The position numbers were made by a program, and so were the translations under genes. 64,000 nt of DNA from Candidatus Yanofskybacteria bacterium RIFCSPHIGHO2_01_FULL_44_24 (GTDB lineage: Bacteria; Patescibacteriota; Minisyncoccia; 2-02-FULL-40-12; GWA2-44-9): positions 3,170-67,169 of the forward strand of contig MGJK01000011.1 in NCBI GenBank assembly GCA_001794215.1, written 5' to 3'. The notes beneath the pieces were generated by a model, which did no database searches, was not told the DNA's origin, and saw nothing but the letters and a program-made list of their open reading frames with translations. Shown here in pieces: positions 1 through 60,353 of this stretch. Each line of letters begins with the position of its first letter. Position 1 is the first letter of the stretch.

Positions 1-210
1 TTTCCTCTGGTTACTAAGATGTTTCACTTCACCAGGTATACTTCTCGCTTGCGCGAGATAATCATGGTTCACATGATTGGGTTTCCCCATTCGGTTATCT
101 CCGGATCAATGGTTGCTAGTCGCCTCCCCGAAGCTTATCGCAGACACGCCACGACCTTCATCGCCTTTTAGTGTCAAGGCATCCTCCGTACGCCCTTATG
201 AGTAATATCC
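1..210 (-). rRNA. rrl: 23S rRNA, 5' terminal part (gene continues beyond window start)
   Basis: Reverse complement of 1-200 matches conserved 23S 5' domain (GGATGCC...GGCGATGAAGG[A/T]CGTG...GATAAGC...GAAACATCTTAGTAACC). A GACCTCCCGCTGGAGGTC processing-stem-like hairpin lies at about 216-233. Confidence 0.8.
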
Positions 211-3454: not shown

Positions 3455-4717
3455 CTAGTACTCGTACATAGAGAGCTGGGCATCCACCTGCTTCATGGTT
3501 TCCAAAGCCACTGAAACAACGATTAATATCGAGGTGCCTCCAACCTGAAGAGCCGTAATACCGGTGAAGCCCTGAACAATATTCGGTAATACCGCTATCA
3601 CTCCCAAAAATATAGCTCCGACCAAGGTAACTCGATTCAATAAGTGATTAAGAAATTGAGCCGTCATCGGTCCGGGCCTGATACCGGGGATATATCCGCC
3701 TTGTTTCTGAATGTTTTCTGAAATAGATTTAGGATCAAAGGTAATCGCGGTGTAGAAATACGTAAATAGGACGACTAAGAGGAAGTAAAACATGGAATAC
3801 CAGACTTGGGATTGCAAAAAACCGTTAACTATCTGAGAAATTCTTGAAATTACGGCGATATTTGTTCCGGCCAAAAAATTAGCAATCATGCCCGGAAAAA
3901 GCAGAATGGATAAGGCGAATATGATCGGGATAACGCCGGCATTATTGACCCTCATCGGTAAATAAGTAGATACCCCGCCATAAACCTTGAATCCCCTGAC
4001 TCTTCGAGCATAGTTAACCGGAATGTTCCTTTGGGCCTCGGATATATAAACTACACCGACAACAACTATAAGGGCGACTATGATAAAGCCGGCGTAAGAG
4101 AACAGATCTTGGCCCGATGTGTAAGAAAAGAGAGCCTGTTGAACGCTTCCCGGGAAACCAGCCACTATGCCGGCTAAAATCAAAAGGGATGTTCCATTTC
4201 CAAGATTTTTTTCGGTGATCAATTCACCAAGCCACATAAAGAATATGCTACCAGCAGTAATCACGAGCAGTGTTGAAGCCCATTCTACCATGCTTAAGCT
4301 GTCGATAACTCCTTGCCGGGATAAAAGAACCAGAAAACCATATCCCTGAAGAATAGCCAAAGGAACGGTCAACACCCTTGAATACTGATTAAATCTCGCC
4401 CGACCGGCTTCTCCTTCGTATTTATACATCTGCTCCATGGCCGGGAATATCATCGTTAAGAGCTGCATGATAATTGAGCTGGTGATATAGGGACCCAAAC
4501 CGAGCATGCCTATCGAAAGGGCGGAAAATGACCCTCCTGTGAAGGCGCTGATCAGGCCGAAAAATTGATTCTGGCTCAAAAAATCCTGAAGCCTCGAAGC
4601 ATCTATCGCCGGAATAGGAATATTCGAGATAATCCTGAAAACAACCAAAAGTCCGAAGATAAATAAAACCTTATTTCTTAATTCCGGTCTTTTAAAAATT
4701 TGAAGAATACGCTGCAT
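3455..4717 (-). CDS. secY: preprotein translocase subunit SecY
   Basis: 420 aa with 10 TM segments and typical SecY motifs (GLGPYITSSIIMQLL). Position after rplO. Confidence 0.95.
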   Translation of the reverse strand: MQRILQIFKRPELRNKVLFIFGLLVVFRIISNIPIPAIDASRLQDFLSQNQFFGLISAFTGGSFSALSIGMLGLGPYITSSIIMQLLTMIFPAMEQMYKYEGEAGRARFNQYSRVLTVPLAILQGYGFLVLLSRQGVIDSLSMVEWASTLLVITAGSIFFMWLGELITEKNLGNGTSLLILAGIVAGFPGSVQQALFSYTSGQDLFSYAGFIIVALIVVVGVVYISEAQRNIPVNYARRVRGFKVYGGVSTYLPMRVNNAGVIPIIFALSILLFPGMIANFLAGTNIAVISRISQIVNGFLQSQVWYSMFYFLLVVLFTYFYTAITFDPKSISENIQKQGGYIPGIRPGPMTAQFLNHLLNRVTLVGAIFLGVIAVLPNIVQGFTGITALQVGGTSILIVVSVALETMKQVDAQLSMYEY

Positions 4718-21969: not shown

Positions 21970-22162
21970 TCGCGGGTTAAAAGTCCATCAAGTTCTTAAA
22001 GTTAATAAAGTACTTTACAAACTTTATAACTTTACAAACTTTATAAACTATTTCTTAGGTCTCTTCGCTCCGTATTTGCTCCTCTGTTGTCCCGATTTTG
22101 TTCATCGGAACGATGACTACAAAATCGTGGATCCACGATTTGCCCTGCAAATCGGGACATTC

Positions 22163-51590: not shown

Positions 51591-52199
51591 TTATTCCGGC
51601 ATAGCAAAAAATATATCCATATTTTGAGAGCGCATCTCTTTACCCATTAGAAATTGATGAATACGCATTTTAGTCAACTGACCCCTGTCATCAGTAAAGA
51701 AATCGCAAACTACTTTAATGTAATCGGGTAAATCCAATACTGTTATTGCATTACATTCTCCGGATCCTTCTGCCGGCAATGGCTGAATACTTTCTGCCCA
51801 CATAAGAGCAAGTCGAGGATCGTTGAATAGATATTTAGTGAATATCCCCAATCCATCATCATTATCTCCCTCGTATGGCTTATCACCTGTCAGTGTTTTA
51901 TAGTGTCTATTATCAAGATAGAAATCGATGGTTTTAAAATCTAAAAAGTCTTCTGCGTACTGAACTACTATCCTTTCTTCCCCTGGACTCCAAGGACTTT
52001 TATGTCGTAGTTCCATCTTAGCCGGAAAATAAGACATCCGATAGTACGCCGTACCAGAGCCTCTCGGATAATATTTTCCTGCTCCTTCACCGGTGAATTT
52101 TTTAATCATTAGATCTCTCAAAACATCGCCAAGCCTTACCCCCATCATACTCCTCCGCTTTTTAAGTTTGCTGAGATCAGTTAAACATAGCTGGCCCAA
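51591..52199 (-). CDS. hypothetical protein (202 aa)
   Basis: ORF only. No family recognised. Confidence 0.4.
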   Translation of the reverse strand: MGQLCLTDLSKLKKRRSMMGVRLGDVLRDLMIKKFTGEGAGKYYPRGSGTAYYRMSYFPAKMELRHKSPWSPGEERIVVQYAEDFLDFKTIDFYLDNRHYKTLTGDKPYEGDNDDGLGIFTKYLFNDPRLALMWAESIQPLPAEGSGECNAITVLDLPDYIKVVCDFFTDDRGQLTKMRIHQFLMGKEMRSQNMDIFFAMPE

Positions 52200-52212
52200 T
52201 TCCGCAAGACTA

Positions 52213-52494
52213 TTATCTTAACCTCAACGATCGTAGCCACCGAATAAAATAAGTAATACCAGAAACCACGATAAATGCTCCGAATAGATCTACGGCAAAG
52301 TTAGCTATGGAAAAAGACCGGCAAACTCCCCCATCAGGACAAAGTCCTCCATAAAAATAGAAGCCGAGAGGAAATCCCATGACCTGCGATCCATCATAAG
52401 CCGGGGCATCCGCAGTCATAAAATATGAGACAAATGAAGCGGTTAGAAAAAGTAAAACCGATAAAACAATATCTATTAAAACTTTTTTACTCAT
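52213..52494 (-). CDS. small membrane protein (93 aa)
   Basis: Two TM segments. Confidence 0.35.
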   Translation of the reverse strand: MSKKVLIDIVLSVLLFLTASFVSYFMTADAPAYDGSQVMGFPLGFYFYGGLCPDGGVCRSFSIANFAVDLFGAFIVVSGITYFIRWLRSLRLR

Positions 52495-52570
52495 TAGCTA
52501 TTCAAATAAATCTTAGTGGGTTCCGTCGATGCTAATTAGAACCAAGTTGTGCAGAAATTACTGAATTGGG

Positions 52571-52888
52571 CTATTCATTCTCTGAGCCAGCCCCACCTTT
52601 TTCCAACCGTTTTTCGTATTTAGCTAAAACTTTGTCAATTACTTCTTCCAAATCAACATTCAATGAATTTGCAATAGTAACCACAGAATATAGCAAATCA
52701 CCAAGTTCCGATTTCATCTCATCTTTAAATTCTGCCCTCTTTTTCCCATAATCCGTCATTTTAAGCATTTCTTTTGCAACTTCTCCAAGTTCTGATATGG
52801 CATCGAGAATTTTATACTCTGGAGCCGAATCAAGATTATGCTCTTTTGAAAATTCTTTTATTCTTTTTTGCAATTCTTGGATTGTCAT
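52571..52888 (-). CDS. MazG-like nucleotide pyrophosphohydrolase (small all-alpha NTP-PPase)
   Basis: EExxE/D-type motifs (ELGEVAKEM...ELGDLLYSVV). Confidence 0.75.
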   Translation of the reverse strand: MTIQELQKRIKEFSKEHNLDSAPEYKILDAISELGEVAKEMLKMTDYGKKRAEFKDEMKSELGDLLYSVVTIANSLNVDLEEVIDKVLAKYEKRLEKGGAGSENE

Positions 52889-52905
52889 AAATTATATATT
52901 TTATG

Positions 52906-52923
52906 GTAGATTTGGTGGACCCA
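52906..52923. repeat. 18-bp direct repeat of the tRNA-Ala 3' end (att-like left boundary)
   Basis: GTGGACCCAAGCGGACTC, identical to 55782-55799 inside tRNA-Ala. Confidence 0.7.
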
Positions 52924-53177
52924 AGCGGACTCCCTCCAAAGACGGACAAGCGAACCGCTCTGTCAATAAATAATGACGGGCCGCTTGTGGACCGTACCAG
53001 ATTCGAACCGCTGTCACAACTCTCGCAATCTTCCGATTGCTCGGTCGCGACCCCGTCTCATGGTATCACTCACCAAAAGCTCGTGATACATCATTACGAC
53101 TCTCAATTCTCTCAGAAAGCAAAGCAGTTTGCTTTCTTTCGTGGAATTGAGCCTCCTCATTGTCCCGATAGCAAGGG

Positions 53178-53273
53178 TGGTCTATTCTTGAAATAGTTCG
53201 GACGGTTTTCGCCGCCGCAGGCGGCGAAGAAAGCCCCCCGCGAAATTCCGAAATTGCGGCTCTGCCGCGCCGA
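53178..53273. repeat. IR-A left arm (96 bp, perfect inverted repeat of 54086-54180)
   Basis: Verified by hand reverse-complementation: GGTCTATTCTTGAAATAGTTCGGACGG...GCTCTGCCGCGCCGAT. Confidence 0.85.
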
Positions 53274-53372
53274 TGACAATTTCAAGTTTTTCTTTGGCGG
53301 CACAAATTCAATATGAATTTTAATCTAAAAACGCAAAAAATACAAAAAGAAAAAACTCCAGCAACAAGCAGG

Positions 53373-54008
53373 CTACTGGAGTGGGTGTCGGCGAATTTTT
53401 TCCGCCGCGGAAAGAACGTCGTTGGGAATTTCTACTTTTACAATATCGCCTTTCTTGGCGTACTCATTGAGTCTTTCAAGTTCACCGAGAAGTCGACTGA
53501 TTCGACGAGAAGTGAACCACTCTTTGGGCATTGGAAACGCACTACCGTAGACAGTAATTTCAGGAAATTGCTTTCGGAAAGTGGCGCACGACCTTCTCAA
53601 CAGAGGGGGCATGGCGCACAGGATTACCGATTTTGGATTTACTCCGGCATTGCGGCACGCAGACATTCCCAAAAGAACATTTTCGAGAGAGTTTGTAGAT
53701 TCTTTCTCAAGTATCAGGGCTTTTTTAGGAACACCATCGGATTCAATCAACGAAGCGTAAAATTCTGCTTCCGTTGCAAATCCATCTGGAATGGCATCTC
53801 TGCCTCTACCAGAGATGACAATGCGCGGTGCCTTACCTTTTTTCCAAAGTTCTGCGGCATGGTGTGCTACCTGCGGTTCGTAATGACCAAAAACAAAAAT
53901 GGTGTCAGATTGCGGCAAGTCTTTGGTTGGGACGCTTTCGGTCAGAAACTCGGTTACTGTGTCAACGAACGGCTGAATAGTTTTCAAGTCGGCCTCCTTT
54001 GTTTCCAT
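53373..54008 (-). CDS. DUF218 (YdcF/SanA-like) domain protein
   Basis: LILEKESTNSLENV matches the DUF218 LEdrSrnTyENa core. Flanked by the IR-A arms. Confidence 0.6.
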   Translation of the reverse strand: METKEADLKTIQPFVDTVTEFLTESVPTKDLPQSDTIFVFGHYEPQVAHHAAELWKKGKAPRIVISGRGRDAIPDGFATEAEFYASLIESDGVPKKALILEKESTNSLENVLLGMSACRNAGVNPKSVILCAMPPLLRRSCATFRKQFPEITVYGSAFPMPKEWFTSRRISRLLGELERLNEYAKKGDIVKVEIPNDVLSAAEKIRRHPLQ

Positions 54009-54085
54009 AGGATTAAAAATTTTCTTTTCCCAAAATTAAAATACAGTTCGAGCCGATATTTTTACAGGTTCTTTGGCAATTTTTA

Positions 54086-54180
54086 TCGGCGCGGCAGAGC
54101 CGCAATTTCGGAATTTCGCGGGGGGCTTTCTTCGCCGCCTGCGGCGGCGAAAACCGTCCGAACTATTTCAAGAATAGACC
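54086..54180. repeat. IR-A right arm
   Basis: Reverse complement is identical to 53178-53273. Confidence 0.85.
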
Positions 54181-54275
54181 ACATTTTAGAAAACCGCAAG
54201 TCATTGGAAGCCGCCTCGCTTTGCTCGGCGGCCAATTCGTATTGAATTTTGGGCGAAAAAATCAGTTGGCGATTA
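54179..54275. repeat. IR-B left arm (97 bp, perfect inverted repeat of 55689-55785), abutting IR-A
   Basis: CCACATTTTAGAAAACCGCAAGTCATTGGAAGCCGCCTCGCTTTGCTCGGCGGCCAATTCGTATTGAATTTTGGGCGAAAAAATCAGTTGGCGATT. Confidence 0.85.
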
Positions 54276-54312
54276 TGTATTTTTGGGAAAGAAAATTTTT
54301 AATCAAAACCAC

Positions 54313-55809
54313 ATGAAATACATACTTTACGCTCGCAAGAGCACCGAGGATGAAGACAGACAAATTTTAAGCATTGAGGCCCAAGTCTTTGAGTTAAAAG
54401 AATTTGCCGCCAAAGAAAAACTTGAAATTGTCGCCTCTTTTCAAGAGGCAAAAACTGCCAAAGAACCTGGGCGAATTAAATTCGCAGAAATGTTGTCATT
54501 GATTGAAAAGGGTAAGGCCGAGGGCATACTTTCATGGAATCCAGACAGATTGGCAAGAAACAGCGTTGACGGCGGAAGGATAATTCACATGATTGATCGC
54601 GGCTTGATTAAGTCATTGAAATTTCCAACGTTTTGGTTTGAACCGACACCACAGGGTCTATTTATGCTCCAAATTGCTTTTGGCCAAAGTAAATATTACG
54701 TGGATGCTTTACGCGAGAATGTAACGCGTGGAATGAGGCAAAAAGTGAGAAACGGCGTATGGCCAAGCAAAGCTCCGCTCGGCTATCTCAATAATCCGAA
54801 AACCAGAGGAATTGATATTGACAGAGAAAAAGCCCAGAAAGTTAAAAAGATTTTTGAACTTTACGCCACCGGAAGCTACAACTTGCGAGAATTGGCCGAG
54901 TGGTGCAAGCGAATAAATCTTAAAAGCAATTTGGAGTGGAACATCGCCATCTCTCAAGTCCATAAAATACTCCAAAATGTTTTCTACATTGGCTTAATGA
55001 AATACAAAGGTGAAATCTACGAAGCAACCCACGAGCCGTTAATTTTAAAGAAACTTTTTGATAAAGTGCAGGAAATTATGCGAGAGAAAGGAAAACCGCA
55101 AAAAGTGAAGAAACATAATTTTGCTTTTCTTGGCTTAATGAAATGTCCGTGTTCTGCTACGATAACCGCTGAAAAGAAAATCAAGCCAAGTGGCAAAGAA
55201 TATATTTACTATCGTTGCACAAAAAAGAAAGGACCTTGCCAAGAAAAGCACTTTTTGCGGCAGGAAGAACTATACACCCAAATCAAATCTTTTCTTCAAA
55301 AAGTTTCTTTGTCGAGCCACGACACCAAGAAGGTTTTATCTGAATTAGACAAAGAGGAATCACAAGCAAAAGAACAATCAAAAATCACTGTTCAAAATCT
55401 CAAGGCCAGTTTTTCTGAAATTGAAAAGAAGCTTGAAAAACTTCTCGATGTCTATTTGGCCGAAACTATTACCGCCGAAGAATACGTTTCGCGCAAAGAA
55501 AAATTGGTCAAACAAAAGGTCGGTCTGCAAGAGCAAATCCGAGATTTTGAACAGAAAGGCCTGTCGTGGCTCGAACCGGCTCGTGAGTTCGTTTTATCCT
55601 TAAATCAAGCCTCAAAACTGCTTGAATCAGAAAACAAAACAGAAATGACAACATTTCTCAAAAATATCGGCTCGAACTGCATTTTACAGAATCGCCAACT
55701 GATTTTTTCGCCCAAAATTCAATACGAATTGGCCGCCGAGCAAAGCGAGGCGGCTTCCAATGACTTGCGGTTTTCTAAAATGTGGACCCAAGCGGACTCG
55801 AACCGCTGA
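54313..55809 (+). CDS. large serine recombinase (resolvase/invertase catalytic domain, recombinase domain, zinc ribbon and coiled coil)
   Basis: N-terminal YARKSTEDEDRQ...SIEAQ catalytic region. CPCS...C..C zinc ribbon at about aa 290-320. Start set at MKYILY. The last 36 codons lie within the IR-B right arm. Confidence 0.8.
   Translation: MKYILYARKSTEDEDRQILSIEAQVFELKEFAAKEKLEIVASFQEAKTAKEPGRIKFAEMLSLIEKGKAEGILSWNPDRLARNSVDGGRIIHMIDRGLIKSLKFPTFWFEPTPQGLFMLQIAFGQSKYYVDALRENVTRGMRQKVRNGVWPSKAPLGYLNNPKTRGIDIDREKAQKVKKIFELYATGSYNLRELAEWCKRINLKSNLEWNIAISQVHKILQNVFYIGLMKYKGEIYEATHEPLILKKLFDKVQEIMREKGKPQKVKKHNFAFLGLMKCPCSATITAEKKIKPSGKEYIYYRCTKKKGPCQEKHFLRQEELYTQIKSFLQKVSLSSHDTKKVLSELDKEESQAKEQSKITVQNLKASFSEIEKKLEKLLDVYLAETITAEEYVSRKEKLVKQKVGLQEQIRDFEQKGLSWLEPAREFVLSLNQASKLLESENKTEMTTFLKNIGSNCILQNRQLIFSPKIQYELAAEQSEAASNDLRFSKMWTQADSNR
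55689..55785. repeat. IR-B right arm (overlaps the recombinase C-terminus and 3 nt of tRNA-Ala)
   Basis: Reverse complement is identical to 54179-54275. Confidence 0.85.
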
Positions 55810-55855
55810 CCCCCTCATTGCAAATGAGGTGCTCTACCAGCTGAGCTATGGGCCC
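55783..55855 (-). tRNA. tRNA-Ala (anticodon TGC)
   Basis: Minus strand GGGCCCATAGCTCAGCTGGTAGAGCACCTCATTTGCAATGAGGGGGTCAGCGGTTCGAGTCCGCTTGGGTCCA. Cloverleaf folds by hand. Confidence 0.9.
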
Positions 55856-55884
55856 ACCCTTGCTATCGAGGATCCTCGATTTCA
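55856..55884. repeat. direct repeat 1 containing the perfect 16-bp palindrome ATCGAGGATCCTCGAT
   Basis: GGCCCACCCTTGCTATCGAGGATCCTCGAT (including the tRNA 5' end). Repeated at 56243-56278. Confidence 0.7.
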
Positions 55885-55920
55885 CTATTATATTAAAATT
55901 GTAAATCGGGACAAACAAGG

Positions 55921-55948
55921 CGCTCTACCAGCTAAGCTAACGGCCCCT
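55921..55948 (-). pseudogene. tRNA 5'-half fragment (tRNA-Ala-like acceptor and D-arm only)
   Basis: Minus strand GGGGCCGTTAGCTTAGCTGGTAGAGCGC matches the tRNA-Ala 5' half, then diverges. Confidence 0.5.
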
Positions 55949-55960
55949 GCACCCAGAAAG

Positions 55961-56215
55961 CTATGCCAAAGAGTTTTTAATTCTTCGCTTTAGCTGGGTA
56001 TGTGCCTGCGAAAACCTTTTTAAGTTTTCTTCCCGATATTTGGCATCTTTCTCGGATTTATAATACTCGCAATATATCAACTCGTATGGACCCTTATTCT
56101 TGGTGGCTGTACTTTGGTTTTTATTATGTTCTGCTAATCTTCTCTCCAGGTTGGCAGTATAGCCTATATACAACGAGTTATCTTTGAGGCTTTTGATTAA
56201 ATATATACAGAACAT
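55961..56215 (-). CDS. GIY-YIG nuclease domain protein (84 aa)
   Basis: IYLIKSLKDNSLYIGYTANLERRLAEHN: GIY...YIG, R, E/H/N spacing. Confidence 0.75.
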   Translation of the reverse strand: MFCIYLIKSLKDNSLYIGYTANLERRLAEHNKNQSTATKNKGPYELIYCEYYKSEKDAKYREENLKRFSQAHTQLKRRIKNSLA

Positions 56216-56242
56216 AATATTAGCTTCCTGGGTGAGGGGCTA

Positions 56243-56278
56243 ACGGCCCATCATTATTTATCGAGGATCCTCGATCTG
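56243..56278. repeat. direct repeat 2 with the same 16-bp palindrome
   Basis: GGCCCATCATTATTTATCGAGGATCCTCGAT. Confidence 0.7.
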
Positions 56279-56362
56279 ACTACTGCAGTCGGTGTGTTTT
56301 ACAAAAAATGTAAAATCGTTTATATTTTATCACAGATTTTTAACATTTAAAAGCGGGGCTCC

Positions 56363-56719
56363 GTGAGCGAAAATCAGAAAGATTCACCCATTACAATCAC
56401 TGAAAAAGCGGCTGAAAAACTTCTCAAGCTGATAAAGGATAAGGATTTAACTCCCGATAAAGCATTCCTCAGAGTTTTCATACACGGAGGCGGATGCTCC
56501 GGATTCCAGTATGGCCTGATGCTCGAAGGCAGTCCTTCGGAAAACGATAAAATTTTTGAATCGAACGGAGCAAAAATCGTAATTGATCCTATCAGCCTCA
56601 GATATCTCAAGGGTGCGGAAGTAGATTTATCAAATGACCTGATGGAAAGTTTCACGATAAAGAATCCTAATGCCAAGTCAACTTGCGGCTGCGGACAGTC
56701 ATTCCAGCCCGAAAATTAA
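56363..56719 (+). CDS. erpA: iron-sulfur cluster insertion protein (HesB/IscA/ErpA family)
   Basis: GGGCSGFQY ... CGCGQSF conserved Cys triad. Confidence 0.85.
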   Translation: MSENQKDSPITITEKAAEKLLKLIKDKDLTPDKAFLRVFIHGGGCSGFQYGLMLEGSPSENDKIFESNGAKIVIDPISLRYLKGAEVDLSNDLMESFTIKNPNAKSTCGCGQSFQPEN

Positions 56720-56727
56720 GCAACTCA

Positions 56728-57705
56728 TTAAGAGTTGCTTTTTAAATACCCGAGAACCAATGCCTTTGCTTCGTCGATACTTTTGCTGTCCATCAATTGA
56801 GCCCGCAAATCCTTAGCTCCCGGCCAATCATTGATGTATATTTTGAAAAACCTCTTGAGCGTATCGAAGTTTTTGACGGTGGTCTTATCCTCTCCCTTCC
56901 ATAGTTTTGAAAAATTGTCGCAATGCTGAAGCATCAACTTAATCTTATCTTTCGGCCTGATTGAGTCCGGTTTGATATTTTCGTTGAAAAACCACGGATT
57001 GTTAAATATACCGCGCCCGATCATAATCCCGTCCAATTTATACTCGGATGCTTTTTGTCTTGCTTCCGCCATATCCTTTATATCGCCATTACCGACAACT
57101 AAAGTACCAACGGGCTTGGCCATTTCGGCTATCTTTCCCATCTCATCCCAATGAGCAGGGACAGAGGACATCTCTTTACGGGTCCGCCCATGAACTACAA
57201 GCGCGGCGATCCCCTCTTCGACAAGATGGGGTATCCACGATTCAGTTTCAATTTTATTGTAACCGAGCCGAGTCTTCACCGATATCGGCAAAGAGCCGGC
57301 AACTTGTTTTGCCGCCTTAATTAACGCGCGAGCCAATTTAGGATTTTTTATAAGCGCAGCCCCCGCTCCTTGTTTCTCGATAGACCTGTCCGGGCATCCC
57401 ATATTTATATCAACCCCGTCAAAACCCATTTTTACAGCCATCTCAACGCATCTTTTAAGTTTCTCCGGATCAGCAGTGAAGAACTGAGCAACGATAGGCC
57501 TTTCATTTTTTTCAAAATAAAGCTCGCCCCTGAATTTTTCCGGACCTAAAGCACAGATACCGTCGCATGAAACAAATTCAGTATAGAATACGTCCGGTCT
57601 TCCGGTCTGAATAATTATCTGCCTGAAAGCCCAATCGGTAACATTAGCCATCGGTGCCAGAACCGTAAAAGGCTTATTCAATTTTCCCCAGAAACCATAG
57701 TTCAT
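56728..57705 (-). CDS. dus: tRNA-dihydrouridine synthase
   Basis: TIM-barrel Dus motifs (LAPMANVTD, catalytic Cys in GCP). Confidence 0.85.
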   Translation of the reverse strand: MNYGFWGKLNKPFTVLAPMANVTDWAFRQIIIQTGRPDVFYTEFVSCDGICALGPEKFRGELYFEKNERPIVAQFFTADPEKLKRCVEMAVKMGFDGVDINMGCPDRSIEKQGAGAALIKNPKLARALIKAAKQVAGSLPISVKTRLGYNKIETESWIPHLVEEGIAALVVHGRTRKEMSSVPAHWDEMGKIAEMAKPVGTLVVGNGDIKDMAEARQKASEYKLDGIMIGRGIFNNPWFFNENIKPDSIRPKDKIKLMLQHCDNFSKLWKGEDKTTVKNFDTLKRFFKIYINDWPGAKDLRAQLMDSKSIDEAKALVLGYLKSNS

Positions 57706-57761
57706 AAAAGCACATTAGTATAGAAAAACCCTCCGCCGAGGATTTTTCTATACTACTAATG

Positions 57762-57835
57762 TGCGCATGCCTGGATTTGAACCAGGGACCTCGTCATTAT
57801 CAGTGACGCGCTCTAACCAGCTGAGCTACATGCGC
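57762..57835 (-). tRNA. tRNA-Ile (anticodon GAT)
   Basis: Minus strand GCGCATGTAGCTCAGCTGGTTAGAGCGCGTCACTGATAATGACGAGGTCCCTGGTTCAAATCCAGGCATGCGCA. Confidence 0.9.
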
Positions 57836-58506
57836 ATTATTGAATCAAGATAGGCCTTTATACCCATCATAATTTCCCTCTTAACTGAACTGCTCGAAAC
57901 CTTTATCGAACAAGTGCCATGCCTAAACGATTCTTTGTATAAAAAACTAGATTTTTTTAGTTTTGAAACATAGGTCTTATAAAACTGCCCTCTTTTAAGG
58001 CATAGCTCATTTTTCCAGAATTCTTTCTCTTTTTCAAGCTCCATGTTCTCGTAGAGATGAAGCTGAGCCCTGAGCTTTGATCTCGGTAGTTTAAAAAAAT
58101 AAATTAACCATTTTATAAAAAATCTAAGGATTCTCGGGTCGGTATTGGCCAAAGACACATTATAATAATCTGTCTTAGATCCTTCAGCTAAGTACAAAGT
58201 CAGCCCGGAAATTAAAAACGATATTTTTGAAAATTTTCCAAGTCTTTTTAAATACCGCCCATATATCTTCTCATCTTTCTTCTGTCTTATTGCTCTCATG
58301 GTATTACGGAACTTTTCACGACTCGCCTCTCCTTTTGACCAAGCCGATCTTCTTAACTCCAAGATTCGCTCCTCGCTCAAAGGAAATTGCCTTAACCAAG
58401 CACTTAAAGTGCTCTTGGCAACAGGAATTTGAGCTTTAATTGACCCATAGCCCAACTGCTGTCCTATTCTCATCTGGATAGCTTTTTCTTTTAGTTCTTG
58501 ATGCAT
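57826..58506 (-). CDS. hypothetical HTH protein with a LAGLIDADG-like motif. 3' end overlaps tRNA-Ile by about 10 nt
   Basis: N-terminal HTH (SIKAQIPVAKSTLSAWLRQ). GLTLYLAEGSKTD resembles a single LAGLIDADG motif. Confidence 0.35.
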   Translation of the reverse strand: MHQELKEKAIQMRIGQQLGYGSIKAQIPVAKSTLSAWLRQFPLSEERILELRRSAWSKGEASREKFRNTMRAIRQKKDEKIYGRYLKRLGKFSKISFLISGLTLYLAEGSKTDYYNVSLANTDPRILRFFIKWLIYFFKLPRSKLRAQLHLYENMELEKEKEFWKNELCLKRGQFYKTYVSKLKKSSFLYKESFRHGTCSIKVSSSSVKREIMMGIKAYLDSIMRM

Positions 58507-58631
58507 TTAATTCGAACCTTTGTTATTAGATTGCTCAGTAATATATCTTAACAAAGAAAAATATAGCAATCAACTATTTGCTATATCACGAGCAGTTCTT
58601 CGCACAAGAAATTAAAACTAAAAGAGGGCTA

Positions 58632-60353
58632 TTAAGCCCCCAGCAACAAAGCGGTAACTTTGTCGCTTAAATTCTCTTTATTGCCCGGACTGAACTTTAA
58701 CAGCCGGCGCAGAATAGACATCTGGGTTCTCTGGGTGTCGCCCTCCGAACACATGACCACGATTTCCCGCGTCAGCCTTTCTAATTCAAAAAGGTTGTCG
58801 TTAAAAATCAACCCCGTCAAAAGACTTTCTTTCTCCGTTCTATTTTTGGCGAATGCAGCCAAAACGCTTTCCAGAACATATATTTTAATCAGGCAATCCG
58901 CTAAACTGCTCAAAACAACCTGATGTTTTTCGAGTTCGAGTCCGAATTTTTCGTAAGCCGATCCGGCTGCCATCAAAACGGCTTTTTTGGCATTATTCAG
59001 GTAGATCTTAAGGCGTTCGACGTAATCTTCCGGCTCCGTCTGAATCGAAGGGGTCATTGATTCGTTGATTACTTTTTGAATCGCATCCTTGACCGGAAGA
59101 CTTCCGGTCATTGCTTTCTTAAACAGCATGCCCGCCAAGAGCAATCTGTTTATTTCATTGGTACCTTCGAAGATTCGGTTGATTCGAGAATCACGATAAT
59201 GCCTTTCGGGATGGCCCTCGCAGAATCCGGAACCGCCATGAACCTGAACATTCTCATCGACAACAAAATCAAGGGCTTCACTGCAGAATACTTTGACAAT
59301 AGAGCATTCTATGGCGCATTCTTCGATGGCCTTCAAAATAGCCTTGGAATCTTTCGCGTCGACACCATGGATGACTTCATCGAGCATTCCGGCAGTTCTG
59401 TAAACAACGGACTCCATCGCATAGTTCAAGGCCGCCATTTGGGCAAGCTTGTGACGGATAACTCCGAAATTGCCGATTTGCCGGCCGAACTGTTTCCGCT
59501 CTTTCGAATACTGCAAGGCCTCATCCACGCATACCCTGCCCGCTCCCAAACAAGCCGCACCCAATTTAAATCTGCCAAGGTTCAAAATATTGACCGCAAT
59601 CTTGAAGCCATTGCCCTGCTCGCCAAGCATATTCTCAACCGGTACTTTTACCGAATCGAGAATCAACGTCGCCGTAGAAGAGCCCTGAATACCCATCTTA
59701 TGCTCTTCTTCTCCAACTCTTAAGCCTTCAAAAGTTTTTTCAACGATAAAGGCCGTCGGGTCCTTGCCGTTTACTTTGGCAAAAATAATGAACAGGTCGG
59801 CAAAACCTCCGTTTGTAACGAATATTTTCTCGCCGTTCAATATAAGGCACTTTCCATCTTCGGATTTTACCGCAGTCGCCCGAATACTGTTGGCATCGGA
59901 TCCGGCCACCCCTTCCGTCAAAGAATAAGCCGCCACCCACTCCCCTGAAACAAGCTTGGGCAGATACTTTTTCTTCTGTTCTTCGGTTCCGAAAAACCTG
60001 ATCGGAAGAGTGCCAATCCCCGTATGCGCCAAAAACGTACAGGCAAAGGAACCCTGCTTGGAAACATGCTCGGCTACGATAGCGGCGACTACCGCTCCAA
60101 GATCAGTCCCCCCATACTCTTCGGGAACTTCAACTCCCAAGAAACCAACCTCGGCCAGCTCACGGATAAGCTCTCTCGAAAATCCGAAGTCCTTGGATTC
60201 AATTCTCCTAATAGCTTCATCGGTAATCAGTTTTTGATCAACCACCTCCGCTATCGTTTCCTTGATTAGCCGCTGTTCGTCGGTCAGATTATTGACCGTG
60301 AGTATATCGGGAATTTTATCGCTCGGAAGAATGAATTCTCCGCCCTTCGGCAC
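58632..60353 (-). CDS. acyl-CoA dehydrogenase family protein (long form)
   Basis: 573 aa. ACAD N-terminal, middle beta-barrel and C-terminal helical domains. Confidence 0.75.
   Translation of the reverse strand: MPKGGEFILPSDKIPDILTVNNLTDEQRLIKETIAEVVDQKLITDEAIRRIESKDFGFSRELIRELAEVGFLGVEVPEEYGGTDLGAVVAAIVAEHVSKQGSFACTFLAHTGIGTLPIRFFGTEEQKKKYLPKLVSGEWVAAYSLTEGVAGSDANSIRATAVKSEDGKCLILNGEKIFVTNGGFADLFIIFAKVNGKDPTAFIVEKTFEGLRVGEEEHKMGIQGSSTATLILDSVKVPVENMLGEQGNGFKIAVNILNLGRFKLGAACLGAGRVCVDEALQYSKERKQFGRQIGNFGVIRHKLAQMAALNYAMESVVYRTAGMLDEVIHGVDAKDSKAILKAIEECAIECSIVKVFCSEALDFVVDENVQVHGGSGFCEGHPERHYRDSRINRIFEGTNEINRLLLAGMLFKKAMTGSLPVKDAIQKVINESMTPSIQTEPEDYVERLKIYLNNAKKAVLMAAGSAYEKFGLELEKHQVVLSSLADCLIKIYVLESVLAAFAKNRTEKESLLTGLIFNDNLFELERLTREIVVMCSEGDTQRTQMSILRRLLKFSPGNKENLSDKVTALLLGA

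Follow-up and report, generated by a model that had tools for sequence, protein, structure and literature searches.

How did a gene for an 84-aa GIY-YIG nuclease come to lie among pieces of tRNA-Ala genes, beside two copies of a perfect 16-bp palindrome, in the genome of Candidatus Yanofskybacteria, an ultra-small CPR bacterium? The window considered here is the whole stretch of DNA that was analysed, 64,000 nucleotides in length. An initial annotation of its tRNA-Ala locus listed the palindrome in two copies, the repeat around it, a tRNA-Ala-like 5′ half, a recurrent 11-mer and the 84-aa GIY-YIG ORF, and all of these are present in the sequence. That annotation combined them into a single mobile cassette, an interpretation that holds only in part, since it treats two types of element as one: a selfish-looking cassette does interrupt tRNA-Ala, but the palindrome was assigned to the wrong element. 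The locus is probably better described as a nest of selfish insertions, made up of a GIY-YIG cassette (type 1), a tRNA-carrying double hairpin (type 2) and a serine-recombinase element. On this reading at least three kinds of selfish DNA are stacked at the locus, in keeping with the original suggestion that more than one mobile system uses it.

The GIY-YIG cassette and its insertion site

The elements at the tRNA-Ala locus are all read on the minus strand. The type-1 cassette consists of the GIY-YIG ORF (55961-56215) within an inverted repeat of about 20 nt (CCCCTCAC…GTGCAGGGG). The left arm (GCCCCTCACCCAGGAAGCTA; 56221-56240) includes AGGAAG, which resembles a Shine-Dalgarno sequence, and stops 5 nt short of the ATG. 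The right arm (TAGCTTTCTGGGTGCAGGGGC; 55943-55963) runs from the stop codon into the restored tRNA 5′-end, of which it covers the first 4 nt. The termini read CCCCTCAC...GTG(C)AGGGG, and the two arms folded as DNA give -19.5 kcal/mol (z = -4.0).

The insertion point of the cassette is after nt 11 of a tRNA-Ala gene, here termed tRNA-Ala*, and the cassette is flanked on either side by the 11-mer GGGCCGTTAGC, which occurs twice on the minus strand. The left copy (56239-56249, one position away from the 56238-56248 first given for this recurrence) represents the original nt 1-11 of tRNA-Ala* and lies upstream of the cassette. The right copy (55936-55946) is included in nt 1-35 of tRNA-Ala* (55912-55946), which has a GGGCCGT-type acceptor and is 83% identical to nt 1-35 of tRNA-Ala. 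Since nt 1-11 of tRNA-Ala* are found on both sides, the tRNA regains a complete 5′-end immediately after the ORF.

Comparison with a syntenic relative, contig L119, which has the same IscA-like gene upstream, provides the empty type-1 site (...AAATAATGACGGGCCGTTAGCTCAGTTGG...). L119 reads PAL-AAATAATGAC-GGGCCGTTAGCTCAGTTGG...ACGGTCCACAAGCGGCCCGTCATTATTTATCGGGA, PAL being the palindrome, and matches the window through tRNA nt 11 except for two substitutions in the leader region, after which the window continues into the cassette and L119 into a normal tRNA; this comparison was read directly from the sequences, a MAFFT global alignment having misplaced the 3′ part. The relative lacks the GIY-YIG cassette and its site is uninterrupted, which bears out the earlier proposal of a small selfish-looking cassette in a tRNA-Ala gene with a piece of the target, the 11-mer, duplicated at its flanks. 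Within this population the cassette is not polymorphic for presence or absence, since the GIY-YIG region is identical in all contigs that carry the window's ORF.

A second, ORF-less type-1 hairpin is found on the plus strand at 734-867, about 525 nt upstream of the 5′-end of the 23S rRNA gene, whose start was located by Rfam at window positions 1-209. This hairpin has the termini of the GIY-YIG cassette (CCCCTCAC ... GTGCAGGGG, with the same extra C) and folds as DNA with -23.4 kcal/mol (z = -4.6). A group I or group II intron was considered and rejected: no covariance model for an intron matched in 52000-59000 at E ≤ 1, and the type-1 cassette has only about 50 nt outside the ORF, not enough to hold a ribozyme. 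Beyond tRNAs and the 23S start, Rfam gave no match in the locus, in the whole window or in the rpsL-rpsG element described below, so the elements are not known RNA families or introns.

A minimal nuclease of the UPF0213/Slx1 type

The 84-aa protein matches Pfam PF01541 with 60.5 bits (cut-off 22.6; E = 2e-16), and residues Y5, Y16, I17, G18, R26, H30 and E62 are invariant across 37 sequences. In a profile search against the PDB, the matches were led by the UPF0213 proteins 1zg2 (2.4e-12) and 1ywl (6.6e-09), followed by SLX1 (7cq2; 3e-06), and no I-TevI or Seg protein was among the matches listed. By sequence, the protein belongs to the UPF0213/YhbQ-Slx1 (URI-type) clade of GIY-YIG enzymes. The group I intron endonuclease model TIGR01453 gave 22.1 bits against a cut-off of 56.

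The setting of the gene resembles that of a homing endonuclease, as it lies inside tRNA-Ala and has an endonuclease-free syntenic allele in L119. Classical GIY-YIG homing endonucleases such as I-TevI and the Seg proteins are about 200-270 aa long and join an N-terminal catalytic domain to a C-terminal DNA-binding domain. The 84-aa protein does not have this build, consisting of the catalytic domain only and having no C-terminal DNA-binding domain. Its invariant catalytic residues and the low dN/dS of its homologs (0.05-0.09) indicate a protein that is intact and under constraint. Such strong purifying selection would also fit a function beneficial to the host.

Type-1 cassettes in other genomes

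Homologs of the protein were surveyed at 80 loci. At 25 of these, the start of a co-oriented tRNA falls between about -15 and +40 nt relative to the stop codon; chance alone would give roughly 0.1 such loci. At 16 loci, in Ala, Lys and Val genes, nt 1-10/11 of the tRNA are duplicated, and this 10-11-nt duplication follows the sequence of each host tRNA. An inverted repeat with a score above the 95% null brackets 48 of 77 ORFs, and the termini CCCnnCAC / GTGnnGGG recur across different host genes. Besides cassettes at tRNA 5′-ends, type-1 cassettes reside inside 23S rRNA (L036, L050), tmRNA (L039) and RNase P RNA (L019, L024, L031, L042, L067), and some homologs are intergenic. Tandem cassettes occur in L006, and hairpins without an ORF in L015, L016 and L067 as well as at 734-867 in the window. 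The length of the duplication differs by clade (10-11, 17, about 35 or about 55 nt), and RNase P hosts show no evident duplication; this does not readily fit a simple target-site duplication of fixed length, which was not upheld across the clades.

Insertions into structured RNAs could instead be RNA-level intervening sequences, in which case the inverted repeat would serve mainly as an RNase III stem, the ORF would be a passenger or maturase-like, and ordinary recombination would account for the spread. The type-1 insert places a closing helix of about 20 bp within a structured-RNA gene, as in RNase III-processed intervening sequences, the stems are stable, and rRNA, RNase P RNA and tmRNA hosts must tolerate or remove the insert. 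GIY-YIG insertions that are not introns have also been reported in CPR rRNA, with homing doubted by the authors (PMC11270868). Mismatches in type-1 stems, however, show no excess of G:U (12) over A:C (19), and the conservation of the terminal octamers across hosts suggests that a protein recognizes the DNA ends. In tRNA hosts, moreover, the rebuilt tRNA follows the cassette, and with this order RNase P would be enough. This explanation is unlikely, and it overlaps with a mobile hairpin cassette, which is the explanation that we prefer and which it does not exclude.

A domesticated housekeeping gene is more doubtful again. Under this explanation a UPF0213-type host nuclease is co-transcribed with the tRNA, and the repeats are debris of local tRNA-gene duplication or decay; it draws on the nearest solved relatives being UPF0213 proteins of Bacillus and Enterococcus, on the strong purifying selection (dN/dS 0.05-0.09) and on the invariance of the locus in this population. 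Grouping with UPF0213/YhbQ proteins had been named at the outset as a point against a selfish cassette if it came with conserved loci, and the grouping is indeed found by sequence, extending to Slx1-type proteins, but the homologs do not occupy conserved housekeeping loci. A UPF0213/YhbQ housekeeping locus was rejected on these grounds, as the homologs sit in many unrelated hosts (various tRNA isotypes, 23S rRNA, RNase P RNA, tmRNA and intergenic sites) with inverted repeats, duplications and the same element-specific termini. Against debris of local duplication stand the 10-11-nt duplication that tracks each host tRNA sequence, the syntenic empty site, and the tandem and ORF-less copies.

The palindrome belongs to a tRNA-carrying double hairpin

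The exact palindrome ATCGAGGATCCTCGAT occurs at 55865-55880 and 56260-56275, and a palindromic variant, ATCGTGGATCCACGAT, at 22124-22139. Allowing up to two mismatches, the window holds 3 sites against 0.02 expected, a number that none of 100 shuffles reached. Around the two exact copies is a repeat of 24 nt with 92% identity (55864-55887 / 56259-56282), which continues, across a 1-nt indel, into GGCCCA(C/T)C.

Searching metagenome contigs for the pattern PAL-N8-11-GGGCC gave 42 matches, 4 of them attributable to chance; as the pattern demanded GGGCC after the palindrome, the count is enriched for tRNA-Ala starts, and other palindrome contexts fall outside it. About 36 contigs share an architecture, which we term type 2, with the layout TCCCGAT-(loop or second-subfamily GIY-YIG ORF)-ATCGAGGA|TCCTCGAT-leader-complete tRNA-Ala-trailer-ATCGGGA. 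In 35 contigs an intact inner tRNA-Ala comes with a complementary leader and trailer, the TCCCGAT and ATCGGGA flanks, and outer tRNA-Ala halves split at 35/36. The insertion point is between anticodon nt 35 and 36 (G35/C36) of another tRNA-Ala, at the dyad of TTG^CAA, and no target-site duplication is shown by the element. The length of hairpin 1 is bimodal, either 9-40 nt or 267-283 nt with a GIY-YIG ORF. In these longer hairpins of relatives the loop contains an ORF of 81-85 aa that ends a few nt before the palindrome; the encoded proteins score 50.9-58.9 bits against PF01541 and form a different subfamily, 32-41% identical to the window's protein. A GIY-YIG gene of this type was sought in the window and none was found. 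A scan of viral contigs for the palindrome gave 4 matches, 2 of which are the same contigs as GC-rich chance matches of the metagenome scan.

The window contains two nested ORF-less type-2 copies, an outer one that carries tRNA-Ala* and an inner one that carries the working tRNA-Ala; nested copies are also seen in L093 and L110. In the outer copy, the 5′ arm and leader of H_A (TCCTCGATAAATAATGAT; 56250-56267) precede tRNA-Ala* and pair with the H_A trailer (CAAGCGGCCCGTCATTATTTAT; 52966-52987), which is complementary to the leader plus nt 1-5 of tRNA-Ala* and has lost the terminal CGGGA. L119 has the same trailer sequence, continuing there into ATCGGGA. The leader is AAATAATGAC in L119 and AAATAATGAT in the window, and leader and trailer together match L119. 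The 5′ part of tRNA-Ala*, homologous to the intact inner tRNA-Ala of L119, stops at G35, where the inner type-2 element starts. The 3′ part (52988-53162) extends from C36 (CAATGAGGAGG) to the T-arm and an acceptor strand, ...GGTTCGAATCTGGTACGGTCCA, that pairs with GGGCCGT, and holds a further insertion of 136 nt (53016-53151). Neither ARAGORN nor Rfam called a tRNA at 52988-53162, and tRNA-Ala* is therefore taken to be a pseudogene.

The inner copy begins with an ORF-less hairpin 1 (TCCCGATTTAC...GTGAAATCGAGGA; 55873-55911), which folds as a hairpin and, with the preceding TTG, contains a promoter-like TTGTCC-16-TATAAT (10 of 12 matches). The 5′ arm and leader of H_B (TCCTCGATAGCAAGGGT; 55856-55872) follow, immediately 5′ of the working tRNA-Ala. 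The complement of this stretch, CCCTTGCTATCGGGA, is at 53163-53177 (15 nt, 100% complementary), forming the H_B trailer and 3′ arm and the right end of an inner element built as in the approximately 36 contigs. Further downstream, at 52913-52961, a still older 'level 0' tRNA-Ala has left a remnant of its 3′-end, in which CCA is encoded and the T-loop is interrupted by 18 inserted nt. This remnant shares 17 identical nt with the working tRNA's 3′-end.

This arrangement indicates that the 16-bp palindrome marks the place where the two hairpins of the type-2 element abut, and that it lies outside the type-1 cassette. In copy 1 (55865-55880) the 3′ arm base of hairpin 1, ATCGAGGA, abuts the 5′ arm base of H_B, TCCTCGAT. 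Copy 2 (56260-56275), also an exact match, is the junction between a decayed hairpin-1 remnant and the H_A 5′ arm of the outer element, placed as the palindrome is in 38 metagenome contigs with PAL-leader-tRNA, and has its intact ortholog in L119. A minimal version of the same structure is provided by a complete 70-bp double-hairpin element with no ORF and no tRNA, on the plus strand at 22089-22158, in the rpsL-rpsG spacer between the genes for S7 and S12. Its core is ATCGTGGATCCACGAT, it folds into two abutting hairpins (z = -6.1), and its insertion site, CTGTTG^CATTC, is similar to the TTG^CA target in the anticodon loop.

Two other roles for these structures were rejected. The palindrome as a promoter operator or a terminator of tRNA-Ala is contradicted by its fixed place in a conserved element in about 36 unrelated contigs and by the variant in the rpsL-rpsG spacer. 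At the exon-intron junctions of archaeal-type spliced tRNA introns, a 4-bp helix lies between two bulges of 3 nt each. By inspection, the junctions of the outer tRNA consist of the anticodon stem, a 4x3 internal loop (UUUG/CAA) and a 7-bp helix, and lack the motif for bulge-helix-bulge splicing. When the outer halves were joined, no tRNA was called in about 17 of 30 contigs with both halves; outer copies are often decayed.

The initial annotation had taken the palindrome to be the recognition or cleavage site of the GIY-YIG nuclease, and the palindrome repeats to be a target duplication that brackets one cassette. Two exact palindromes do flank the ORF, and the ORF of autonomous type-2 elements ends a few nt before the palindrome, such that some GIY-YIG protein may well act on it. 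The palindrome-adjoining ORFs elsewhere are nevertheless of the divergent subfamily absent from the window, while homologs of the window's protein have boundaries of their own (CCCnnCAC/GTGnnGGG plus the tRNA 5′ repeat); a match to the palindrome core is absent at 78 of their 80 loci, and L013 and L026 have near-palindromic variants (ATCGAGGATCCACGAT, TCGAGGATGCTCGA) that are not the 16-mer. In addition, L119 has the palindrome and leader without the cassette, and the rpsL-rpsG spacer has the variant without a GIY-YIG gene. The true boundaries of the cassette are the inverted repeat of about 20 nt and the 11-nt direct repeat, and because the window holds two nested ORF-less type-2 copies, the palindrome-bearing 'direct repeat' is their homologous interior and no target duplication by the nuclease. 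That the palindrome might be independent of GIY-YIG genes had been foreseen as an objection; it does occur without them, but autonomous copies encode the second GIY-YIG subfamily next to it. The proposal that the palindrome is the site of the window's nuclease is thus largely refuted, and we consider it very improbable.

The working tRNA-Ala and the serine-recombinase element

The cargo of the inner type-2 element is an intact tRNA-Ala(UGC) with G3:U70 (55783-55855; ARAGORN, Rfam 70.4 bits; the lower coordinate is 55782 or 55783). It is near-identical to the inner tRNA-Ala of L101 and L118, and is presumably the functional gene. Between its 3′-end and its trailer lies a large-serine-recombinase element (53178-55782), part of which is invertible. 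The genes of this element include the recombinase (54283-55809), with Pfam matches to Resolvase, Recombinase and Zn_ribbon_recom, and a DUF218 gene (53373-54008). Its inverted repeats I1 and I2 have a common GTGG core, and segment 54179-55785 is inverted in contig L083. The element would have integrated at the 3′-end of the working tRNA later than the type-1 and type-2 elements.

A chimeric metagenome assembly as the source of the repeats and tRNA fragments is suggested by the many contigs that break near the recombinase region, but can practically be discounted, since the stretch that runs from the GIY-YIG gene to tRNA-Ala shows 99.96-100% identity between contigs assembled independently from several samples and sources, the same architectures occur in unrelated genomes, and the breaks coincide with the real inversion polymorphism of L083.

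A possible mode of spread

It is plausible, if somewhat short of probable, that CPR bacteria carry undescribed mobile 'cargo-in-hairpin' modules with minimal (~84-aa) Slx1/UPF0213-type GIY-YIG nucleases, which colonize tRNA, RNase P RNA, tmRNA and rRNA genes and rebuild the gene that they split, type 1 by a duplicated tRNA 5′-end and type 2 by a whole replacement tRNA-Ala in the anticodon loop. The mobility mechanism of both element types, and the roles of RNase P and RNase III, we infer from sequence features.

The tRNA promoter would drive transcription of the type-1 ORF, which would form part of the leader of the pre-tRNA. RNase P, possibly together with RNase III cleavage of the long stem, would then part the message from the tRNA. 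Expression of the nuclease may be kept low because the ribosome-binding site lies in the arm that pairs with the 3′ arm. The nuclease could drive the spread of the cassette in either of two ways: it could cut targets that lack the cassette, with homing-like copying to follow, or it could cut in a structure-specific manner where the hairpin is extruded, much like Slx1 on branched DNA. Slx1 cuts branched and stem-loop DNA, and by analogy such an activity would suit a hairpin-ended cassette. As the type-2 element brings its own tRNA-Ala, loss of the host gene would not be lethal; the carried tRNA also keeps the target site, leaving the element open to re-invasion, which would generate Russian-doll nests.

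Relationship to known mobile elements

With regard to nucleases associated with tRNA genes, the closest parallel is SegB of phages T4 and T6, a free-standing GIY-YIG homing endonuclease in a tRNA gene cluster that recognizes a conserved tRNA-gene motif, the T-psi-C stem-loop (PMC2330249; PMC13096335). SegB spreads together with the tRNA genes beside it and brings about the segmental amplification of a tRNA gene, and segB is statistically associated with tRNA genes (PMC2330249; PMC13096335). Both systems have a GIY-YIG nuclease gene embedded among tRNA genes. SegB, however, is full-length with DNA-binding modules, resides in phage genomes and is not bracketed by a hairpin, whereas the window's protein is an 84-aa catalytic core of the UPF0213/Slx1 type, encoded in a cellular genome inside an inverted repeat and with a duplicated tRNA 5′-end.

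Tsurumaki et al. (2024) described insertions in CPR rRNA genes that encode GIY-YIG proteins and are neither group I nor group II introns (PMC11270868). These share with the type-1 cassettes the organism group and the presence of GIY-YIG inserts in structured-RNA genes, and homologs of the window's protein are found in 23S rRNA (L036, L050). That paper is on rRNA only, whereas the window's copy is in a tRNA gene, and it does not include hairpin termini, tRNA, RNase P or tmRNA hosts, a tRNA 5′ duplication or a tRNA-carrying element (PMC11270868). In a literature search of incomplete coverage, no report was found of hairpin GIY-YIG cassettes hosted by tRNA, RNase P RNA or tmRNA, or of a tRNA nested in the anticodon loop of another.

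The best sequence matches of the 84-aa protein among solved structures are UPF0213 proteins and Slx1 (1zg2, 1ywl, 7cq2). UPF0213 proteins are regarded as host proteins that are still uncharacterized, and Slx1 acts in eukaryotic repair as a partner of Slx4; we know of neither as the gene of a mobile cassette. Bacterial rRNA intervening sequences are similar in having a long stem, a variable loop and a position in a structured-RNA gene, and some have small ORFs, but to our knowledge they do not occur with nucleases, with terminal octamers shared across hosts, or in tRNA hosts with a rebuilt 5′-end.

Integrative elements with att sites in tRNA genes (phages, ICEs) also target tRNAs, carry sequence that rebuilds a functional tRNA and leave a direct repeat. 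They use tyrosine or serine integrases, usually at the tRNA 3′-end, and duplicate only part of the tRNA. Type 1 differs in rebuilding the 5′-end and encoding a nuclease only, and type 2 in carrying a whole tRNA-Ala and splitting the anticodon loop. Conserved terminal inverted repeats, a transposon-like feature, are found in both families (CCCnnCAC/GTGnnGGG; TCCCGAT/ATCGGGA). No recognized transposase (DDE, HUH, serine or tyrosine) was found in the type-1 cassette, where the GIY-YIG nuclease is the only ORF. The ORF-less copies at 22089-22158 and 734-867 resemble MITE- or REP-like sequences in being short, structured, multi-copy and non-autonomous; unlike these, they have autonomous partners that encode GIY-YIG nucleases, not DDE or HUH transposases, and prefer structured-RNA genes as targets.

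Implications for CPR bacteria and the UPF0213 family

If this reading is correct, a nuclease of about 84 residues without a DNA-binding domain can power a mobile element, and hairpin ends, not a long recognition sequence, would therefore be the likely determinant of specificity. The cassettes would explain why tRNA, RNase P and tmRNA genes of CPR bacteria are often hard to detect or seemingly disrupted, and would account for the non-intron GIY-YIG inserts in their rRNA genes; pipelines that annotate such genomes should allow for tRNA-Ala genes that are nested or split. Part of the widespread 'uncharacterized' UPF0213 family would then be selfish. The type-2 element would swap an essential single-copy gene for its own copy, an addiction-like strategy that makes the host dependent on the element's tRNA-Ala and that allows recursive self-invasion.

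Organization of the locus

A 16-nt palindrome (ATCGAGGATCCTCGAT) occurs as exact matches at 55865-55880 and 56260-56275 and as the palindromic variant ATCGTGGATCCACGAT at 22124-22139, giving three sites in the window against 0.02 expected, and the repeat around it is 92% identical over 24 nt. Nearby are the working tRNA-Ala(UGC) (55783-55855, minus strand), a tRNA-like 5′ half with 83% identity to it (55912-55946), and a minus-strand GIY-YIG ORF (55961-56215; GIY-YIG domain, E = 2e-16). The window's other RNA genes are the 5′ end of a 23S rRNA gene and tRNA genes, three tRNA genes in all. Independently assembled contigs show an identical arrangement of palindromes, repeat, tRNA pieces and ORF. 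The initial annotation described these features correctly, and the recurrence of the 11-mer GGGCCGTTAGC (55936-55946 and 56239-56249) is also real, with the second copy lying 1 nt from where it had been placed. The proposal that palindrome-bearing direct repeats bracket a GIY-YIG cassette that duplicated its target is not supported. The palindrome is part of an element separate from the GIY-YIG cassette (type 1), namely a double hairpin that carries a tRNA-Ala and splits another tRNA-Ala (type 2). Two type-2 copies are nested in the window, and the apparent direct repeat is therefore the homologous stretch inside each, running from palindrome through leader to tRNA start.

The type-2 element

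A complete 70-bp double-hairpin unit, GTCCCGATTTTG…CAAAATCGTGGA followed by TCCACGATTTGC CCT GCAAATCGGGAC, lies in the rpsL-rpsG intergenic spacer (22089-22158). It folds into two abutting hairpins (z = -6.1), the palindrome being formed where the 3′ base of hairpin 1 meets the 5′ base of hairpin 2, and its insertion site, TTG^CAT, is similar to the tRNA-Ala anticodon loop. A metagenome scan with the pattern palindrome–N8-11–GGGCC, which is biased toward tRNA-Ala starts, matched 42 contigs, four of them by chance. An intact tRNA-Ala directly follows an 8-10-nt leader in 35 contigs, most of which continue with a leader-complementary trailer, ATCGGGA, and the 3′ half of another tRNA-Ala from C36, and have upstream the matching 5′ half up to G35 and then TCCCGAT. 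TCCCGAT and the palindrome are separated by 9-40 nt, or by 267-283 nt with an 81-85-aa GIY-YIG ORF of a second subfamily (32-41% identity to the window's protein), the first codons of which pair with its last codons in a stem. The element enters at TTG^CAA, the dyad of the DNA for the anticodon stem-loop. Wherever the inner and the outer tRNA of a contig are both readable, their anticodons agree (UGC or CGC), and the joined outer halves are called as tRNA-Ala by ARAGORN in about 13 contigs and not in about 17.

Nested type-2 copies also occur in contigs L093 and L110. On the minus strand of L093 (2343-2460), a unit of tRNA 5′ half, hairpin, palindrome and leader is repeated in tandem with an 88-nt period, giving two palindrome copies and three tRNA-Ala 5′ halves ahead of a complete tRNA. 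Pile-ups of the same kind as the window's are seen at loci L013 (3250-3760) and L026 (3250-3860), where a type-1 cassette, a tRNA-Ala copy with a double-hairpin element in its D-loop or anticodon loop, and an other-subfamily GIY-YIG gene are stacked before one intact tRNA-Ala.

The GIY-YIG cassette and its empty site

On the minus strand the order is palindrome – AAATAATGAT – GGGCCGTTAGC – CCCTCACCCAGGAAGCTAATATT – ATG…ORF…TAG – CTTTCTGGGTGCAGG – GGCCGTTAGCTTAGCTGGTAGAGCGCCTTGTTTG. The ORF lies within an inverted repeat of ~20 nt (56221-56240 / 55943-55963) whose arms fold as DNA at -19.5 kcal/mol (z = -4.0); the AGGAAG ribosome-binding site falls within the left arm, and the right arm includes the stop codon and the tRNA's first four bases. 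Nucleotides 1-11 of the tRNA are duplicated and flank the inverted repeat, which the 10-11-nt repeat overlaps by GC at left and GGGC at right, and excising the cassette and one 11-mer copy from the sequence restores a normal tRNA 5′ half. The cassette-free state is found in contig L119, where palindrome, leader and tRNA nt 1-11 are as in the window and continue into an intact tRNA-Ala; from the palindrome through nt 11 the two differ by two substitutions, both in the leader region. This tRNA-Ala ends in a trailer also present at window 52966-52987, and an IscA-like gene lies upstream in both. A second, ORF-less type-1 hairpin (734-867), ~525 nt upstream of the 23S rRNA 5′ end (1-209, minus strand), has the same termini, including the unusual extra C at right.

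Nested layers and the recombinase region

The oldest layer is a tRNA-Ala 3′ remnant with CCA (52913-52961). The outer type-2 copy, comprising the second palindrome, arm and leader (56250-56267) and trailer (52966-52987), carries a tRNA-Ala at which tRNA searches called no gene, and which is interrupted by the type-1 cassette (nt 11), the inner type-2 copy (35/36) and a 136-nt insert in the variable-loop region (53016-53151, minus strand). The inner copy has an ORF-less hairpin 1 (55873-55911), arm and leader (55856-55872) adjoining the first palindrome and the working tRNA-Ala, and trailer and arm (53163-53177; 15 nt, 100% complementary to the 5′ arm). The 136-nt insert opens with a 50-nt hairpin (CTCAATTC...GAATTGAG) and has no Rfam match. 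Elsewhere, an ORF of 226 aa that matches no Pfam family (57826-58506, minus strand) overlaps the 5′ end of tRNA-Ile (57761-57835) by about 10 nt, with a T-loop-like GGTTCGAAT (about 58511-58519) 4 nt ahead of its start codon; this may be one more case of a gene placed within the decayed copy of a tRNA.

A 2.6-kb large-serine-recombinase element separates the 3′ end of the working tRNA-Ala from its trailer. This region (53177-55785) is structurally polymorphic, many contigs break there, and all its junctions share a GTGG core. One inverted-repeat pair (53177-53281 / 54078-54182; 98% complementary) flanks a DUF218 gene; contig L083 has the segment between another, of 101 nt (54179-54279 / 55685-55785), in the opposite orientation. 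As called, the recombinase has 498 aa in the window orientation versus 438 aa in L083, and the inversion therefore alters its C-terminus. In contigs L092 and L094, foreign DNA directly follows the inner tRNA-Ala 3′ end (GGGTCCAC), that of L094 (ATTTTAGAAAAGG...) being similar to the window's recombinase-element junction, which suggests recurrent integration at this site.

Type-1 cassettes in other genomes

An alignment of 37 type-1 homologs was used to fetch 80 genomic loci. In 25 of the 80, a co-oriented tRNA gene starts between about -15 and +40 nt relative to the stop codon, against ~0.1 expected from tRNA gene density. Nucleotides 1-10/11 of the tRNA are duplicated upstream of the cassette in 16 loci (Ala, Lys or Val hosts), each with its own host's sequence; in other clades the 5′ copy is longer, at 17-35 nt or, in one case, extending to the T-loop, and downstream of all of these the same tRNA is present intact. 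Of 77 ORFs, 48 are bracketed by an inverted repeat whose score exceeds the 95% null, with a conserved outer octamer (CCCnnCAC / GTGnnGGG) and inner arms that differ in sequence among loci while remaining complementary. Cassettes also lie within 23S rRNA (L036, L050), tmRNA (L039) and RNase P RNA, where the arms form P3 (L019, L031, L042, L067) or the cassette is mid-gene (L024). Two identical cassettes precede tRNA-Ala in tandem in L006 (1852-2500), and ORF-less hairpins occur in L015, L016 and L067. The RNase P RNA gene of L067 has its ORF-less mini-hairpin (CCCCCCACTTTCTA/TGAAAGTGGGGG, about 3680-3710) besides the ORF-bearing cassette at P3. Among genomic homologs the closest (75% identity; L001, 3001-3400) is a hairpin-bracketed cassette outside any RNA gene, immediately ahead of the gene for release factor 2 and its CTTTGAC frameshift site; structured-RNA hosts are therefore preferred, not obligatory. 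The window's 84-aa protein has an identical counterpart in a Candidatus Yanofskybacteria metagenome-assembled genome (CPR/Patescibacteria). It retains every invariant residue of the alignment, and dN/dS of 0.05-0.09 indicates purifying selection. Its sequence places it with the UPF0213 proteins and with Slx1, apart from I-TevI-type enzymes.

Mechanism and relation to known systems

Direct observation covers the structure of the locus, the empty site, the reappearance of the elements in many genomes and host genes, their multi-copy and ORF-less derivatives, and the constraint on the protein. The ORF would be transcribed from the tRNA promoter, with the type-1 stem restraining translation and the tRNA freed by RNase P and possibly also RNase III. 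The nuclease might drive spread through homing-like repair after cutting empty sites, or through structure-specific cleavage of extruded hairpins, consistent with its Slx1-like sequence. Microhomology joining of the G-rich cassette end to tRNAs starting GGG would fit the GC/GGGC overlap. A whole tRNA-Ala as cargo would make type-2 insertion into an essential gene survivable, and the new copy would still offer an intact target; this may be why type-2 elements nest.

In function, phage SegB comes closest: this GIY-YIG homing endonuclease recognizes the tRNA T-psi-C motif, moves together with adjacent tRNA genes and amplifies tRNA segments (PMC2330249; PMC13096335). The closest described CPR relatives of the cassette are the GIY-YIG ORFs of non-intron insertion sequences in rRNA genes (PMC11270868). 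In the literature searched, with incomplete coverage, no description was found of hairpin termini for these cassettes, of tRNA, RNase P or tmRNA hosts, of a rebuilt tRNA 5′ end, or of one tRNA gene delivered into the anticodon loop of another. The elements are best placed among the nuclease-associated selfish elements already known from conserved RNA genes, with unusual features of their own.
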